This document shows positions 5,900 to 63,309 of a stretch of 64,000 bases of DNA, piece after piece. The stretch comes from Acinetobacter phage vB_AbaSt_W16: the sequence record PP174317.1, one strand, 5' to 3'. Position numbers and translations under genes: made by a program. The stretch's first letter is position 1. The number at the start of each line of letters is the position of its first letter. The notes beneath the pieces are model-generated. The model was not told the origin of the DNA, ran no database searches, and saw only the letters and a list, made by a program, of their open reading frames with translations.

Positions 5900-6880
5900 T
5901 CAGATGTGGTTATTGAGTAAATTATAACCTGTTTTATGTTTAAGCAACTTAACTATTGATGTAGATAATGGTAATCCATATGCAATCTTTTCATAGTCTG
6001 TTGCAGAAAGATTTTCAAACCGAATTAGCGCAGGCTTAATCAATTTTAAATCTTCAATAATCTCTCGTTGACGCTGAATGTCTGCATATAATTTATCAGA
6101 TTTGTCTTTATATGCATCAAGTTGTTTAGTTATAGTTTCAACTTCACTCATAGCAACGTCTTTATATGCAGCTGAGGTTGTCACACGTAACCCTTTAACA
6201 AACTTAGCTAAGAATGTTTTTTGTGCATTAATAATAACTTCTTGACTTTTCAACTTGAGTTCAATTCTACCATTGGCTTTAGTTAAGTGCTGCTTTTCAG
6301 CTTTAGATGTTTTAGGATGAAGAATTTTCATCGTATTCTTATCAATAAGGGCTTGACGTTCACCTAATTTTAGTTGGGCCGCAACTAAATTATTAATGGC
6401 ACGACGATATTTGTCACACTTATGTGCAGGAATAATATATTTTTTAATTAAAACTTGCTCTTTTTTACAAACATGTTTACTTTCATCTAATGAATTAAGA
6501 CGAATATTTGTATCATAAATTGTACGTTCAAGTTCCATTAGAGCATGTTCAATTGATGTAATTTTATCAATACGATATTGAATTTCATTATCAATAGTTT
6601 CACTTGTTAAATTATTACGCAATGAATTATATTTCTTCATCACAGGTACAACGTTACCATTAATATAGCCTTTATCATTATCGATACGTTCCATCGTCAT
6701 CTTTTCTTCTTCGATGGTATCAGAAAAAGGTAAACCTGTATAAGCACAATGAGTTTGCAATTTCATATTAATAAATGCTTGTAAAGATAAAGTAAACTCG
6801 AGTTTACGTCGAGTTGCATCTTTTTTCTTTGCAATATAGCATTCAGCGAATTTAATATTCTGTTCTACAGTAGTAAACAT
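5900..6880 (-). CDS. Hypothetical protein with a degenerate HNH-like N-terminal motif and a long coiled-coil
   Basis: CAYTGLPFSD...ERIDNDKGYINGNVVPV resembles the HNH core but the second Cys and the His are replaced; the rest is heptad-rich. Start assigned at MFTTVEQ. Confidence 0.5.
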   Translation of the reverse strand: MFTTVEQNIKFAECYIAKKKDATRRKLEFTLSLQAFINMKLQTHCAYTGLPFSDTIEEEKMTMERIDNDKGYINGNVVPVMKKYNSLRNNLTSETIDNEIQYRIDKITSIEHALMELERTIYDTNIRLNSLDESKHVCKKEQVLIKKYIIPAHKCDKYRRAINNLVAAQLKLGERQALIDKNTMKILHPKTSKAEKQHLTKANGRIELKLKSQEVIINAQKTFLAKFVKGLRVTTSAAYKDVAMSEVETITKQLDAYKDKSDKLYADIQRQREIIEDLKLIKPALIRFENLSATDYEKIAYGLPLSTSIVKLLKHKTGYNLLNNHI

Positions 6881-6904: not shown

Positions 6905-6940
6905 AGCAATAATACACAAAAGATAAGATTATGTAAACCT
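6905..6940 (-). promoter_or_regulatory. T4 early-type sigma70 promoter (GTTTAC-N18-TATTAT) for the gene starting at 6880
   Basis: Minus strand reads aGGTTTACataatcttatcttttgtgTATTATtgc. Confidence 0.45.
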
Positions 6941-6995
6941 TTAATAATTCGTTTGAATATTTTTTAACCAATCAATAAATGCAAAACTCGCTTTT

Positions 6996-7125
6996 CATAA
7001 AAAGTGTGTTATATTAGATATAATGCCCGGGCGGCCAGCCCAGGGGGAGATTATATATGTCAGGAATGAATATAAGAGGCGTAGCCTCCGTCCGTAGGAC
7101 GTAATTTAATGATTTAAATGTAATA
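6996..7125 (+). ncRNA. Candidate small structured RNA / GC-rich repeat element, copy A
   Basis: Plus strand has an extended -10 (gTGtTATATTa) at about 7005-7016, then GC-rich hairpins (GGGCggccaGCCC, GAGGC-gta-GCCTC, CGTCC-gta-GGACG) in otherwise AT-rich DNA, ending at the hairpin at 7131-7146. A diverged copy occurs at 49784-49875 in the opposite orientation. Confidence 0.35.
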
Positions 7126-7126
7126 A

Positions 7127-7156
7127 AAAAGGACGCTCATGCGTCCTTAATTTTTA
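7127..7156. terminator. Bidirectional intrinsic terminator (GGACGC-tcat-GCGTCC)
   Basis: A-run upstream and T-run downstream on both strands; follows the macro-domain gene stop. Confidence 0.65.
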
Positions 7157-7597
7157 TAAGTATAAAACAACAATACCAACATCAGGTGTAACATCCTGGA
7201 TAATCTCCGCGATTTCTTCCCAGTTGCCACCTGCAATGCCAGCACCAATTTTTGGAATACCCAATACTTTCCCTTTATAATCAACGTTCAGCTTCGTGAA
7301 TAATTCACGAATGTTTGCATATAGCTGGTCACGTGGGCATTTGCCAGGTCGATATTGTGTATATCCATTAATAATGTCGCCATAAACTGTAGTGGCTACA
7401 GAGTAATCACCTAATTTACCCCAATCACTGTATTCAGTTCGTTTATCAGCCTCAACTGCAACTGGGAATCGTCTTGCTATTTCTCCTGCTATTCCGGCTC
7501 CCATTGTATGGAAACAATTACAACCGTGGACAATTGCATCAAAATCGGAATGTTCAAAAGAATCTAACAAATTATGTTGTACATAATACTTAATCAT
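7154..7597 (-). CDS. Macro-domain protein (ADP-ribose binding / hydrolase family)
   Basis: AIVHGCNCFHTMGAGIAGEIARRFP and LGIPKIGAGIAGGNWEEI match the macro-domain glycine-rich phosphate-binding loops. Confidence 0.8.
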   Translation of the reverse strand: MIKYYVQHNLLDSFEHSDFDAIVHGCNCFHTMGAGIAGEIARRFPVAVEADKRTEYSDWGKLGDYSVATTVYGDIINGYTQYRPGKCPRDQLYANIRELFTKLNVDYKGKVLGIPKIGAGIAGGNWEEIAEIIQDVTPDVGIVVLYL

Positions 7598-11602: not shown

Positions 11603-11866
11603 TTACTTGTACAGTTTCTTTCTTAGCCATGATTTCATGTCCTTTAAAATAGATTTAAGAGTAATTTCTCGAGATTCTAATATTTTATCAGAATAACGAA
11701 TAAAGATTTGTGTTAAAGATTCATTATCTTTAACGTCTAGGGAGAAACCCGCCTCCCAACCTGCGGGATAACTTACATCAAAAATATCATAAGAATTTTG
11801 AAGTAAATCATCAATTGCGTCATCAGTCAATGTTATTGTCTGATTTGAATTTTTCGAGTTCCGCAT
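11603..11866 (-). CDS. Hypothetical protein (87 aa, start at MRNSKNS)
   Basis: AAGGAAAAAG RBS before the ATG at 11866; the TTG-extended start in the track is unlikely. Confidence 0.5.
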   Translation of the reverse strand: MRNSKNSNQTITLTDDAIDDLLQNSYDIFDVSYPAGWEAGFSLDVKDNESLTQIFIRYSDKILESREITLKSILKDMKSWLRKKLYK

Positions 11867-11974
11867 CTGCTTTTTCCTTAGCTCGCTGACTGTGCTCTTC
11901 AGCAAGTAGGATGCCTAACGCAATCGGTAATCCTATTATGCCACAAAGAAATCCAAAAGCGAGAATAGTGCCTA

Positions 11975-48597: not shown

Positions 48598-49758
48598 TTA
48601 TTTACTATTAGGACGTCGTAAAATAGACAAAGCTGATTCAAGTGCTTGAATATCACCCAAAAGAAGTGTTGCCCTTGAATTTGCTTCTTTTGCTTTTTCC
48701 ACATAGTCTTTATGCGATCGCATTAAAGAATCATGTTTTGATTTCATATCTTTAATACGTTCTTCAAGTTGGTCATCCAACGACTTGAGCAAGTCAAGAG
48801 GTGATCGAGCCTCAATTGTACTAGTGGCGATACGACCGGCACTAGGCTGTACTAATGGTTGAACAATATTTGGACTAATTCTATCGTATGGATTTTTAAA
48901 AATATCGATACCTGTACCTAATGGTGGAATAGTTACATTTGATACAATCATATCATTTACCTTGGATGACGATTTAAAAATAACATCTAAATAATTTTCG
49001 CCAACTGCCGTTGCAGATAAATTTGGGCACATATTTAAGAATGTTAACCAACGGCGTTGATATTCTGTTGATCGATGTTGTACAGTACGATAATCATGTG
49101 ATCGAAATGCAGAACGATTTGAATCACATGAATAAACAAAACGCAATCTTACACCGCTAAGTTGTTTTTCAATATAAATTTTCATATCATATGATGCACG
49201 AATACATCGACCCGACGAACTTTTTGAAATATAATGTGCGCCTTCTACATCACGAGAATTTGCTCGAGACCAACGTGCTTCCATTGGTACAAGTCGCGGC
49301 ATATTTTCTAAGAACAAATCATTTAAAACATCAGCTGGATTTGTATCATTAGACCACCAATGTGTATGAGCTAAACCATTTAAAATAATAGATTTTTGCT
49401 TAGCTAAAGGTGTAACATTTTTAGCAAATGCATTTAAACGAGCACGTACTACTTTATCTGCGAACCATCGAGAACGAATAATACGCTTGGCAATAACATT
49501 AACATTGTTTAAGTGAATATCGCGTTCTAAATTAATAACACTTCTAATAAGACGTTCAATTTCTGGAGCAATCGGTGCAGAAGGCTCACCAAATCGAGTT
49601 ATGGCATTAGTCAAATATACAATGTACTGGCTTTTAACAGTATGTGATAACGGAGTATAACTTTTTGCATCTCGTTTGATAGGTCCATTTAATTGAGTGA
49701 TAACATCTTTAATAATAGTTGTAAGTTTGTTCTCAAGCTCTTTACGTATGTGTAGCAT
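48598..49758 (-). CDS. Hypothetical Arg-rich protein (386 aa) with a C-terminal coiled-coil
   Basis: Unusually Arg/Ser-rich for this phage; preceded by the GC-rich structured leader. Confidence 0.6.
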   Translation of the reverse strand: MLHIRKELENKLTTIIKDVITQLNGPIKRDAKSYTPLSHTVKSQYIVYLTNAITRFGEPSAPIAPEIERLIRSVINLERDIHLNNVNVIAKRIIRSRWFADKVVRARLNAFAKNVTPLAKQKSIILNGLAHTHWWSNDTNPADVLNDLFLENMPRLVPMEARWSRANSRDVEGAHYISKSSSGRCIRASYDMKIYIEKQLSGVRLRFVYSCDSNRSAFRSHDYRTVQHRSTEYQRRWLTFLNMCPNLSATAVGENYLDVIFKSSSKVNDMIVSNVTIPPLGTGIDIFKNPYDRISPNIVQPLVQPSAGRIATSTIEARSPLDLLKSLDDQLEERIKDMKSKHDSLMRSHKDYVEKAKEANSRATLLLGDIQALESALSILRRPNSK

Positions 49759-49783
49759 TTTTAAATCCTCAAAACAATTATTT

Positions 49784-49875
49784 CCGTCCTACGGACGAGG
49801 GGCGAAGCCCCTATATCTATCCCGGCCTAAAGAGACAAACCAATGGGCCAACCTTCGGTTTTATTATACACACTT
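49784..49875 (-). promoter_or_regulatory. GC-rich structured element, copy B: extended -10 promoter plus hairpin-bearing 5' leader of gene 48598-49758
   Basis: Minus strand reads aaaaagtgTGtATAATaaaaccgaagg...GGGGCttcGCCCC tCGTCCgtaGGACGg...gaggatttaaaaATG. Shares the 5' aaaaagtgtgt box and the CGTCC-gta-GGACG hairpin with copy A at 6996-7125. Confidence 0.4.
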
Positions 49876-49920
49876 TTTAATGGAAAGCGAGTTAATATCA
49901 ACTTTCCATTAACTGTTTGT

Positions 49921-54088: not shown

Positions 54089-54382
54089 TTACATTGTCCC
54101 TAATCCAACAATAATTAATAATGCAGCAACTAAACCTAACCAATTTATCATTGAACTTAATTTAGTAATTGCAGTGTATTTTGGTGGTGCATAATTTGGA
54201 TATGTACGTGGCAATTGAAAATATAAATCTGTTTTCAATCGAGTACAAGGGGCTTCGCCCTGGTGTTTACCCAAATCAATCCAAAGTGTTTGAACCGATC
54301 CATTATAACGAATCGATTTGATTTTACCGAATCGACATTTGCGCCATACAAATACAGTTTGATTTTCTTTAAATTTACTCAT
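54089..54382 (-). CDS. Hypothetical protein (97 aa) with a C-terminal TM anchor
   Basis: Ends NWLGLVAALLIIVGLGTM; coupled (ATGA) to the upstream NTase gene. Confidence 0.5.
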   Translation of the reverse strand: MSKFKENQTVFVWRKCRFGKIKSIRYNGSVQTLWIDLGKHQGEAPCTRLKTDLYFQLPRTYPNYAPPKYTAITKLSSMINWLGLVAALLIIVGLGTM

Positions 54383-62475: not shown

Positions 62476-62547
62476 GGCGTCGCCAAGGACTCGAACCCTG
62501 GATTGCGGATTTGGAATCCACCGTGTTTCCAACTACACTAACGACCC
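62476..62547 (-). tRNA. tRNA-Trp (anticodon CCA), candidate
   Basis: Hand-folded: acceptor GGGTCGT/GCGACGC (one G-G mismatch at 2:71), D-arm GTGT-AGTTGGAA-ACAC, anticodon arm GTGGA-TTCCAAA-TCCGC, T-arm CAGGG-TTCGAGT-CCTTG. Confidence 0.5.
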
Positions 62548-62787
62548 TTAAACTGCAAATGTGCCAGCATGAAATAATCTCAAACACAATATAAAACCTG
62601 TTGTCAACGCAGGAAAGCTTAATGGCATGTCACGATATAAATTGACAAGTGCATGCAAGCTGTTCTTTTTTAATTATATAGTAAGCACCAACAAATTGTG
62701 AAACGGTGGAATGAGTGAGGCAATTTGCTTTACTCAAGTACCTATACTTACTATAGTGTATATTCGTCTTACGAGAAATATACAAAT

Positions 62788-62864
62788 TGGTCTCCGTAGA
62801 ATGATTTGAACATTCGACACCTGCGTCCCAAACGCAGTGCTCTACCAGACTGAGCTATACGGAG
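62788..62864 (-). tRNA. tRNA-Pro (anticodon UGG)
   Basis: Clean cloverleaf: acceptor CTCCGTA/TACGGAG, D-arm GCTC-AGTCTGGTA-GAGC, anticodon arm CTGCG-TTTGGGA-CGCAG, T-arm GAATG-TTCAAAT-CATTC, discriminator A, encoded CCA. Confidence 0.85.
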
Positions 62865-62985
62865 TTAAATTGCCGTGAAATGTCCTTTTATACTTTCGAG
62901 CATTTCACCACTCAATAAGTAAATCTTGAAGCTTTATTTGTTTTACAAGAGGAAACTTCGTCCTGCTTATCAGGCAATTTAAAAA

Positions 62986-63080
62986 TGGCGGAAGGTGAGG
63001 GGGTCGAACCCTCAAGGCGTGTCACCACGCTCGACTGATTTCAAGTCAGCTGCCGTCGCCAGCTTTCGGCTTGACCTTCC
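62986..63080 (-). tRNA. tRNA-Ser (anticodon UGA), long variable arm
   Basis: Acceptor GGAAGGT/ACCTTCC perfect; anticodon loop CTTGAAA; variable arm GCGTG-GTGA-CACGC; T-arm GAGGG-TTCGACC-CCCTC; discriminator G; encoded CCA. Confidence 0.8.
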
Positions 63081-63147
63081 AATAAAATATTGACGACCTA
63101 AGAACCTTTACACCAATAATGGAGACTTAGGACCCTTTACATCAATT

Positions 63148-63226
63148 TGGCTCCCACCGTGAGATTCGAACTCACCTAACCTCGGATTAACAGTCCGGTC
63201 CATGCACCTAGCTCGGATTCGTGGGA
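63148..63226 (-). tRNA. tRNA, probably Asn (anticodon GUU), imperfect fold
   Basis: 76 nt plus CCA; T-arm GTGAG-TTCGAAT-CTCAC; acceptor TCCCACG/GGTGGGA pairs 6 of 7; anticodon arm CCGGA-CTGTTAA-TCCGA has one C-A mismatch; the D-stem is weak. Identity is tentative. Confidence 0.45.
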
Positions 63227-63233
63227 ATAATTC

Positions 63234-63309
63234 TGGTGCCGACACGAGGATTTGAACCCCGGACCCTCTGATTACAAAACAGACGCTCTACCAACTGAGC
63301 TATGACGGC
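63234..63309 (-). tRNA. tRNA-Thr (anticodon UGU)
   Basis: Exactly 76 nt with standard numbering: D-arm GCTC-AGTTGGTA-GAGC, anticodon loop TTTGTAA, T-arm CGGGG-TTCAAAT-CCTCG, encoded CCA; U5-U68 and U31-U39 mismatches. Confidence 0.75.

Follow-up and report, generated by a model that had tools for sequence, protein, structure and literature searches.

What is the GC-rich, hairpin-bearing segment that lies near position 7,000 in the 64,000-nucleotide (nt) stretch of DNA analysed here (the window, from Acinetobacter phage vB_AbaSt_W16, sequence record PP174317.1), where GC content is 0.47 across 7000-7099 against 0.34 overall? The initial annotation described it as one of two diverged copies of an element, here called A and B, and likened it to promoter-stem-loop repeats or to a phage small RNA (sRNA) family. 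Copies A and B are related to each other and are not chance GC islands. The unit at copy A, which runs from a MotA-type middle promoter through a structured leader to a bidirectional terminator, is a credible candidate for a conserved and so far unannotated non-coding RNA unit. With a modest lean, copy A is read here as a stand-alone middle-mode non-coding RNA and copy B as the same module, there forming a leader of 98 nt 5' of an ORFan gene. Such a module, composed of a middle promoter and a structured leader RNA, is apparently undescribed so far.

Two related copies of one module

Copies A and B share an upstream box of 26 nt that is 92% identical (49893-49868 in copy B), a purine-rich box (M2) and two 5-bp GC-rich hairpins with three-nucleotide loops (H1 and H2, the twin hairpins), and they align poorly between promoter and hairpins. 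The hairpins GAGGC-gta-GCCTC and CGTCC-gta-GGACG lie in copy A where the initial annotation had placed them, as does the 5' sequence, with aaaaagtgTGtTATATTa at 6999-7016 and cccgggcggccagcccaggggg at 7027-7047. The second copy is equally real, with GGGGC-ttc-GCCCC as its first hairpin and the identical 13-mer CGTCCGTAGGACG as its second. Even with up to 2 mismatches allowed, the window contains this 13-mer at two places only, 7089-7101 (+) and 49797-49785 (-), where 0.09 would be expected. Abutting perfect GC triloop hairpins are found in the window at A and B only and in 0 of 30 Markov shuffles, and the whole 167-kb genome of phage Henu6 holds 3 such sites against 0.10 expected. Two outlines of the earlier description had to be redrawn: the shared box begins further upstream than the element was thought to start, at 6986, and the family has more than two members, with five in Henu6 and 5-7 in other genomes.

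Copy A lies antisense to both of its neighbours, srd (5900-6880, -) and the macro-domain/tk.4 gene (7154-7597, -), and the hairpin that follows it is terminator-like on both strands, just as first described. This terminator hairpin proper (7129-7148) would end both the copy A unit on the plus strand and the transcript of the macro-domain gene on the minus strand. Copy B stands directly upstream of a gene for a 386-amino-acid protein that is found only in ZZ1-type phages and is without a Pfam domain; since the protein is limited to these phages, the gene after copy B lends no comparative power. Segments holding copies A and B have matches confined to the Acinetobacter phages Henu6 and ZZ1, at 96-99.7% identity.

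The promoter spacer reads GTGTGT in both window copies (7005, 49873) and GCGTGT in both ZZ1 copies, and Henu6 is mixed; these variants may have been left by an exchange of sequence between copies A and B. An additional hairpin, GGGGCTTCGCCC at 54248-54260, has 13 nt in common with H1 of copy B and has no promoter box or second hairpin near it.

A MotA-type promoter and its GC-rich leader

The phage is of the ZZ1/Henu6-like type (T4-like, Straboviridae, Twarogvirinae, Zedzedvirus), and Henu6 69,027-133,527 aligns with the window at ~98.5%. Both MotA and AsiA are encoded by the phage, and the early and middle genes of the window phage lie on the minus strand. Members of the family carry nGCTTTnC, a gap of 13-14 nt and TAnnnT, which is the arrangement of the ordinary middle-promoter candidates of the Henu6 genome, and a sigma-70 scan found no -35 element for copy A or copy B. 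The same layout of GCTTTnC and -10 matches the T4 MotA-box promoter of reviews (PMC4122927, PMC3016281), and by its sequence the 5' box counts as a middle promoter of the MotA type, not as a plain sigma-70 one. The extended -10-like 5' element of the initial annotation is therefore present without being a simple extended -10, as it belongs to a MotA-type promoter that has no -35 and has GCTTTnC 13-14 nt upstream. Transcription of copy A would start at ~7022 or ~7031, and its tandem -10 arrangement recurs in another Henu6 member, element E.

The promoter-type box is also found at other loci, e.g. Henu6 136479, so that the box is of a generic middle-promoter type and is not specific to the hairpin element. 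A long GC-rich leader after such a promoter (GC 0.43-0.52 in the first 60 nt) is found in Henu6 at the five family members only. Most of the other middle-promoter candidates listed, including those right before genes, have GC 0.20-0.40 over the first 60 nt, and the leaders of ordinary middle promoters, such as those right before genes, are short and AT-rich.

Family members in Acinetobacter phages

When the full Henu6 genome was searched by short-word BLAST and by motif, three members outside the window, C, D and E, joined A and B, for a total of five. Element C lies in the gap between gene 34 and rnh, directed toward rnh and followed by a second, ordinary promoter-like box; element D lies antisense in the gp3|gp2 gap; and element E is immediately downstream of gene 25, reading into uvsY.-2. 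The M2 box reads GGGAUAGAUAUAGGGG in B and is one position off in C, with variants in A, D (GGGAGAGAUAUAGGAG) and E. The twin hairpins are present in A, B and E and more loosely in C, CCCCUA repeats are common to C and D, and AUCUAAUnUAUCUAAUAUAU is common to D and E.

Element E shares a 655-nt 'intergenic' gap of Henu6 (locus L005, 9381-10036) with at least one unannotated open reading frame (ORF; MEQRICAVCKAPIDD...), which is UvsY.-2 in the ZZ1 annotation (L063, 3297-3520); no uvsY gene is annotated in ZZ1 between gene 25 and uvsW.

The family extends beyond Zedzedvirus. The promoter part of C has several matching places in 74 Acinetobacter phage records, and genomes of Lazarusvirus and Hadassahvirus carry 5-7 copies of the unit each. 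Their unit starts with TATAAT-GGUUCUACCGGUUCACCGCUCUAA, continues with an M2-like GGUCGGAGAAGAUAG or ACAGAAUAG, passes in some copies through GCUGC-ugc-GCAGC and CGGCGC-nnn-GCGCCG, and has AAAUUAGAUG last. By tblastx of the flanks against Henu6, the five copies of the phage Kimel were placed at srd|macro (A), 34|rnh (C), gp3|gp2 in antisense (D), 25|uvsY.-2 (E) and the split DNA polymerase (F), and the four positions A, C, D and E are thus orthologous between Zedzedvirus and Lazarusvirus. Over the first ~50 transcribed nt the five Kimel copies are nearly identical, regardless of the strand of the neighbouring gene. On the best-supported reading of these arrangements, A and D would be gene-less, stand-alone non-coding transcripts, and B, C, E and F would be mRNA leaders.

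Copy F (Kimel L073, 4986-5430; AbTZA1 L069, 1-430) heads, in Lazarusvirus and Hadassahvirus, a block of small ORFs inserted between the halves of the split DNA polymerase gene; the corresponding region of the window (~33.7-38.3 kb) showed no clear F copy.

Queried with 251 nt of Kimel, and counting records with at least 80% query coverage, copy A is matched by 52 phage records, all beside the macro or 'phosphatase' gene, with 5-7 places per genome. Eight orthologues outside Zedzedvirus entered the unit comparison, from Lazarusvirus (Kimel, AB-Navy97, Tonic, fHyAci03) and Hadassahvirus (AB-Navy71, Porter, PhT2, AbTZA1); the A-site alignment held nine units (two Zedzedvirus, four Lazarusvirus, three Hadassahvirus), AbTZA1 being added by unit extraction. 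All eight lie between srd and the macro/tk.4 gene, antisense to both, with flank synteny confirmed by tblastx. One order is common to all units, namely MotA-type promoter, leader, M2, twin hairpins, AU-rich stretch and bidirectional terminator, over 138-175 nt. Every copy A orthologue keeps the MotA box, the spacing and the -10 on its plus strand, the terminators have the analogous form AAAGGAGCC-nnnn-GGCUCCUUU, and no conserved ORF opened by ATG, GTG or TTG was found in the Lazarusvirus and Hadassahvirus orthologues. The flanking proteins are only ~60-80% identical across the three genera. The stand-alone small transcript put forward by the initial annotation gains accordingly in its anatomy, since the layout, place and orientation of a ~125-135-nt plus-strand unit are conserved in ~50 genomes of two other genera; the label 'sRNA' for it is putative.

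In 292 kb scanned, twin hairpins lie nearly all downstream of a module promoter. A covariance search downstream of 75 macro-domain homologues from IMG/VR returned the known Kimel and AbTZA1 loci only. On the 164,093-bp IMG/VR contig 650627004_000001 (L092, ~2240-2352, -), a convergent MotA-type promoter lies downstream of a macro-domain gene and is followed by the leader TATAATAGTTCTGA...GGGGAAGAAGATTGAATTTGATG; this unit may be a diverged copy of the module without the twin hairpins.

Hairpin structure

Five versions of the H1 stem occur, GAGGC/GCCUC (A), GGGGC/GCCCC (B), GGGC/GCCC, GUGGC/GCCAC (E) and GCUGC/GCAGC (Lazarusvirus and Hadassahvirus), and four of the H2 stem, CGUCC/GGACG, GCACA/UGUGC, GCACC/GGUGC (E) and CGGCGC/GCGCCG (Lazarusvirus and Hadassahvirus). 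Every version is fully Watson-Crick, and position 2 of H1 is A-U, G-C, U-A or C-G depending on the copy. The loops differ freely (GUA, UUC, UGC, UGU, ACA, AUC), and the ZZ1 terminator has the stem seen in the window with the loop GAAA in place of TCAT. Among close relatives, loops are reverse-complemented, as TGT/ACA in H2 (Tonic L082 against L078 and L086) and as AAAT/ATTT in the terminator (L078, L082, L083, L084), which looks like whole-hairpin flips at palindromes. Taken together, the loop inversions and the ZZ1 loop swap point to stems that are constrained and loops that are not.

A covariance model built from Lazarusvirus and Hadassahvirus copies only, and run on both strands of the window (128 kb) with filters off, has copy B as its best match (24.2 bits, E ~1e-3) and copy A as the next (12.4 bits). 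Folded as whole units, copy A of the window (z = -3.6) and its Kimel counterpart (z = -3.3) exceed shuffled sequences in stability. In minimum free energy folds the AU-rich spacer of copy A is able to pair back with the AU arm upstream of M2, and this pairing is not consistent across genera.

Two longer-range helices were tried and rejected. Helix P1 (5' UUCUACCGG with UCGGU..AGAA of M2) is predicted in Lazarusvirus and not in Hadassahvirus or ZZ1. The closing helix P0 (UCUAAUU with AAUUAGA) is predicted in Lazarusvirus, with a similar closure in the window copy, and not in Hadassahvirus or ZZ1. When the A orthologues were aligned by MAFFT and given to RNAalifold, the hairpins were misaligned by one column and the consensus was uninformative.

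Proposed working of the copy A unit

After infection, host RNA polymerase modified by MotA and AsiA would start at the GCTTTnC-N13-TATATT promoter and make a non-coding RNA of ~125-135 nt, comprising the 5' GC hairpin, the purine box, the two abutting triloop hairpins and the AU-rich stretch. Transcription would stop at the bidirectional terminator, which also serves the convergent macro-domain gene. Most likely the GC hairpins would form a compact, nuclease-resistant core, and the twin hairpins with the following UAAUUUAAU may be a first, weak stop by which a stable leader RNA is marked off.

Several points weigh against this reading. The promoter, start site and RNA ends of copy A, like its transcription, its MotA dependence and any function of the RNA, are deduced from sequence, and no RNA target or mechanism was identified. 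Copy A on its own is not significant with the covariance model (E ~0.5). Stems are invariant within Lazarusvirus and Hadassahvirus by formal pair counting, and the formal covariation on that alignment is therefore nil; the compensatory pattern, drawn from few comparisons of paralogues and genera, could reflect independent hairpin replacements rather than selection for pairing. As the hairpin stems are without G-U pairs, DNA or the opposite strand would form them just as readily. Global folds differ by genus, and folding, which had been proposed for both copies, favours copy A only, as the copy B leader is not unusually stable (z = -1.45). With regard to an antisense target in the phage, the complementary stretches that short-word BLAST of A and B detected across the full Henu6 genome do not exceed 14 nt and are AT-rich or promoter sequence. 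No RNA-seq data or literature on the transcripts of these phages was found.

Comparison with known elements

PeSL and PmSL elements are composite promoter-stem-loop cassettes of T4-like phages (Arbiol et al. 2010, PMC2839356; Comeau et al. 2014, PMC4122927). In them, a stem-loop just upstream of its own promoter terminates the preceding gene, and a Shine-Dalgarno sequence (SD) and ATG form the end; the promoter is an early sigma-70-like one or, in the already described PmSL, the MotA-box variant, a Mot box and then a -10; the cassettes prefer variable ORFs of hyperplastic regions, where they mark indels that separate close relatives; and their copies mediate recombination or mini-circle excision (PMC4122927). 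The module is like them in being a short, multi-copy, intergenic cassette of promoter and GC stem-loop in T4-like genomes, with a Mot-type box and -10 in all copies, with B and F heading ORFan or inserted blocks, and with near-identical copies in one genome that would favour recombination, of which the GTGTGT and GCGTGT variants common to A and B of one genome are the only hint here. It differs in that its hairpins lie 50-130 nt downstream of the -10 (A, B, E, F and the Lazarusvirus and Hadassahvirus copies), in a leader of 60-100 nt, that copy A ends in a terminator and has no conserved ORF (copy B does have the SD GAGG and an ATG), that A and D are gene-less and antisense to their neighbours, and that the positions of A, C, D and E are conserved between genera. 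Because the hairpins are within the transcribed leader and not upstream of the promoter, the module falls outside the published PeSL/PmSL definition, and the likeness to promoter-stem-loop repeats holds only in the wider sense of a promoter and stem-loop family.

The copy A unit is also similar to Rho-independently terminated sRNAs, having its own promoter, a length of ~125-170 nt, no conserved ORF, and a structured 5' domain, an AU-rich stretch and a GC hairpin with U-tail that are conserved in relatives; as in sRNAs derived from 5' untranslated regions, paralogues of the module also serve as mRNA leaders. It differs from them in its phage middle promoter class and in having no Rfam match and no identified seed or target. 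In the whole window only tRNAs pass the Rfam gathering threshold, and permissive Rfam scans of A and B gave chance-level matches only, mostly to the terminator. The element is not mentioned in the ZZ1 genome paper, and no literature on related elements was found.

Other candidates were rejected. The put-type antiterminator RNAs of HK022 have two adjacent stem-loops shortly after a phage promoter, with longer stems that carry internal bulges; put-like antitermination was set aside because in copy A the terminator follows at once and no genes lie beyond. The twin hairpin beside the promoter is missing in some copies, namely D of the ZZ1 type and C and E of Kimel. CRISPR-repeat mimicry and a CsrA sponge were also dropped, as Cas6f-type hairpins have 5-nt loops against the 3 nt of the module, and only 1-3 GGA motifs are present. 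A tRNA or tmRNA identity was likewise discarded, ARAGORN finding only four tRNAs, at 62.4-63.3 kb. In IMG/VR, exact patterns of the H2 hairpin and of the M2 box had 18 and 36 matches respectively, all in unrelated contexts and at the estimated chance level. In an unrelated phage group of ~34% GC (IMG/VR, L009-L025), the exact hairpin CCGTCCGTAGGACGTAA occurs downstream of 'gataag', and a single hairpin is consequently not diagnostic of the family.

The T4 origin oriF and other explanations

The module could alternatively be an R-loop-type origin or primer transcript, a counterpart of T4 oriF (ori-uvsY), which we regard as unlikely. In T4, oriF is made up of a MotA middle promoter followed by an unwinding element, and replication there is primed by the uvsY transcript (Kreuzer and Brister 2010, PMC3016281). 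The annotation of the T4 record, which likewise gives the uvsY transcript as primer, has oriF immediately downstream of gene 25, and element E is exactly at this position, right after gene 25 and in the same direction. Moreover, the T4 uvsY promoter with its first ~20 transcribed nt (GGTATAATGAATCTAAGTCCATCCA; GGTATAATGAATCTAAGTCCwTCCA) recurs once more and nearly unchanged in the srd|modA gap, where it is on the other strand and fires antisense into modA (NC_000866 ~11,865-11,911; L088 2866-2912, +, with the oriF copy at L087 1545-1610, -), a site equivalent to that of copy A in place and orientation. Exactly two places per record were found in 11 of 12 Tequatrovirus records sampled (515 matching), and this two-copy pattern implies that a gene-25-proximal copy and an antisense copy upstream of srd predate the split of Tevenvirinae and Twarogvirinae. 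No mention of the antisense twin of the oriF leader was found in the reviews consulted.

By analogy with T4, an origin- or primer-type role for the module has some, if low, probability. The MotA-dependent transcript would stay hybridised, its GC-rich leader nucleating the hybrid and its AU-rich stretch unwinding, and the hybrid would prime leading-strand synthesis, with copy A firing opposite to the early genes; in that case the GC hairpins of copy A would serve in forming the hybrid or in processing the primer. An AT-rich stretch does follow the hairpins in every copy, the 5-7 copies per genome come close in number to the origins of T4, of which there are at least 5, and in both systems a MotA-type promoter gives a transcript that may itself be the functional product. 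The positions agree exactly for E and oriF only, as T4 oriA (16,763, inside gene 56) is off the A-equivalent position by ~5 kb of gene order and oriG (152,947, 2.1 kb inside gene 34) is ~2 kb from the C-equivalent. In T4 an A+T-rich unwinding element follows the promoter directly (PMC3016281), whereas the first 60-80 nt of the module are GC-rich and structured and form the most GC-rich DNA of the region. A strong terminator 30-80 nt past the hairpins is not a known origin feature, and T4 origins have no shared sequence motif (PMC3016281). The general form of this idea, in which the module would represent origin-type primer promoters at 25|uvsY.-2, antisense to srd (A), 34|rnh and gp3|gp2 in the Acinetobacter phages and at oriF and its twin in T4, is just as improbable.

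Read on the minus strand, the same segment offers a cluster of terminators, a PeSL-like insulator of three stem-loops with U-rich tracts after the macro gene, in which read-through would be stopped before the srd early promoter and the plus-strand promoter would be incidental or weak. Three minus-strand segments (7148-7129, 7089-7075 and 7044-7026) are indeed terminator-like and lie upstream of the srd promoter (6937-6909), with the order of stem-loop, promoter, SD and ATG that defines PeSL. M2 gives on this strand a U-rich tail for H1, the twin hairpin is possibly a pair of back-to-back terminators, and the pure Watson-Crick stems form on either strand. This explanation nevertheless has a low probability in our judgement, as in B, F, E and C the hairpins are sense-oriented between promoter and start codon and would stop their own transcript, the plus-strand MotA box, spacing and -10 are kept in all copy A orthologues, and the near-identity of the ~50-nt leader in the five Kimel copies holds whatever the strand of the neighbour.

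Slightly less credible again is that copy A is a relic of a mobile regulatory cassette that once drove a gene, was inserted or inverted upstream of srd and lost that gene, leaving non-functional DNA kept similar to its paralogues by gene conversion. Such a history would suit the position of B and F at the head of ORFan or inserted gene blocks, the distribution of GTGTGT and GCGTGT, which fits exchange between copies, and the loop inversions (TGT/ACA, AAAT/ATTT), which point to DNA-level events at palindromes. It fits poorly with a gene-less terminated unit whose place and orientation are common to three genera with flanking proteins diverged to ~60-80% identity, or with the T4 antisense promoter-leader copy at the equivalent site, and dead DNA is not expected to keep promoter, hairpins and terminator in ~50 genomes.

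Finally, a micro-protein gene for a 15-amino-acid peptide (MSGMNIRGVASVRRT, 7057-7104) is very improbable and the ORF is probably not a gene: it has a good SD (GGGGGAG) 7 nt before its ATG, and both substitutions between window and ZZ1 within it are synonymous third-position changes (not significant, p = ~0.06 by rough estimate), but the ORF is confined to copy A of the ZZ1 type, the corresponding frame of copy B has a stop and no start codon, no ATG, GTG or TTG opens an equivalent ORF in the Lazarusvirus and Hadassahvirus orthologues, and the ORF lies mostly inside the two hairpins.

Significance

If the stand-alone RNA reading of copy A is true, a conserved multi-copy non-coding element would be added to the T4-like phages that are under development against Acinetobacter baumannii, and the gene-less antisense units A and D would be cases that current annotations miss or label 'hypothetical protein'. 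The idea of a portable promoter/stem-loop cassette (PeSL/PmSL) would be extended to a type with a transcribed structured part and, should the RNA be regulatory, the module would be one of the rare middle-mode sRNA families of phages. The T4 oriF twin at the site equivalent to copy A may give a handle on which other origins use R-loops and on what governs R-loop formation, both of which are open questions (PMC3016281).

Coordinates of the features

Table 1. Features of copies A and B and of the adjacent srd promoter, in window positions
Feature	Positions	Strand	Basis or remark
Copy A, whole unit	6986-7155	+	promoter to terminator
MotA-box-like element aaCTCGCTTTTCA, core GCTTTTC at 6990-6996	6986-6997	+	box and 13-14-nt spacing as in copies B-E
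-10 region: TGtTATATT 7007-7015 (MotA spacing); second, perfect TATAAT 7019-7024	7007-7024	+	read from sequence
5' GC hairpin CCCGGGC-ggcca-GCCC(a)GGG	7027-7046	+	in minimum free energy and centroid folds; specific to Zedzedvirus copy A
AU arm and purine-rich box M2 (UUAUAUAUGUCAGGAAUGAAUAUAAGAGG)	7051-7079	+	alignment with M2 of other copies
15-codon ORF MSGMNIRGVASVRRT behind GGGGGAG	7057-7104	+	read from sequence
Hairpin H1 GAGGC-gua-GCCUC	7076-7088	+	sequence and hairpin scan
Hairpin H2 CGUCC-gua-GGACG	7089-7101	+	abuts H1
AU-rich spacer UAAUUUAAUGAUUUAAAUGUAAUAAAA	7102-7128	+	~10% GC; counterpart in orthologues AAAUUAGAUG...GAUAUAUCU
Bidirectional intrinsic terminator AAGGACGC-ucau-GCGUCCUU and U-tail	7129-7155	both	terminator-like on both strands
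Copy B, whole unit	49893-49759	-	
MotA-box-like element (GCTTTCC 49888-49882) and -10 TATAAT (49868-49863)	49863-49893	-	sequence
5'-terminal mini-hairpin AACC-gaa-GGUU at presumed start	49850-49860	-	read from sequence
Purine box M2 GGGAUAGAUAUAGGGG	49808-49823	-	unchanged in Henu6 copy B; one mismatch in Henu6 element C
Twin hairpins GGGGC-uuc-GCCCC (49811-49799), one U, CGUCC-gua-GGACG (49797-49785)	49785-49811	-	
Rest of leader, SD GAGG (49770-49767), ATG (49758-49756) of 386-amino-acid ORFan	49756-49784	-	
srd early promoter, sigma-70-type, TTTACA-17-TATTAT	6909-6937	-	10/12 consensus matches, promoter scan; divergent from copy A

Elsewhere in the window, the four tRNA genes found by ARAGORN (Trp, Pro, Ser and Thr) lie at 62476-63309 (-), and the Rfam tRNA model passes three of them, all except tRNA-Ser.

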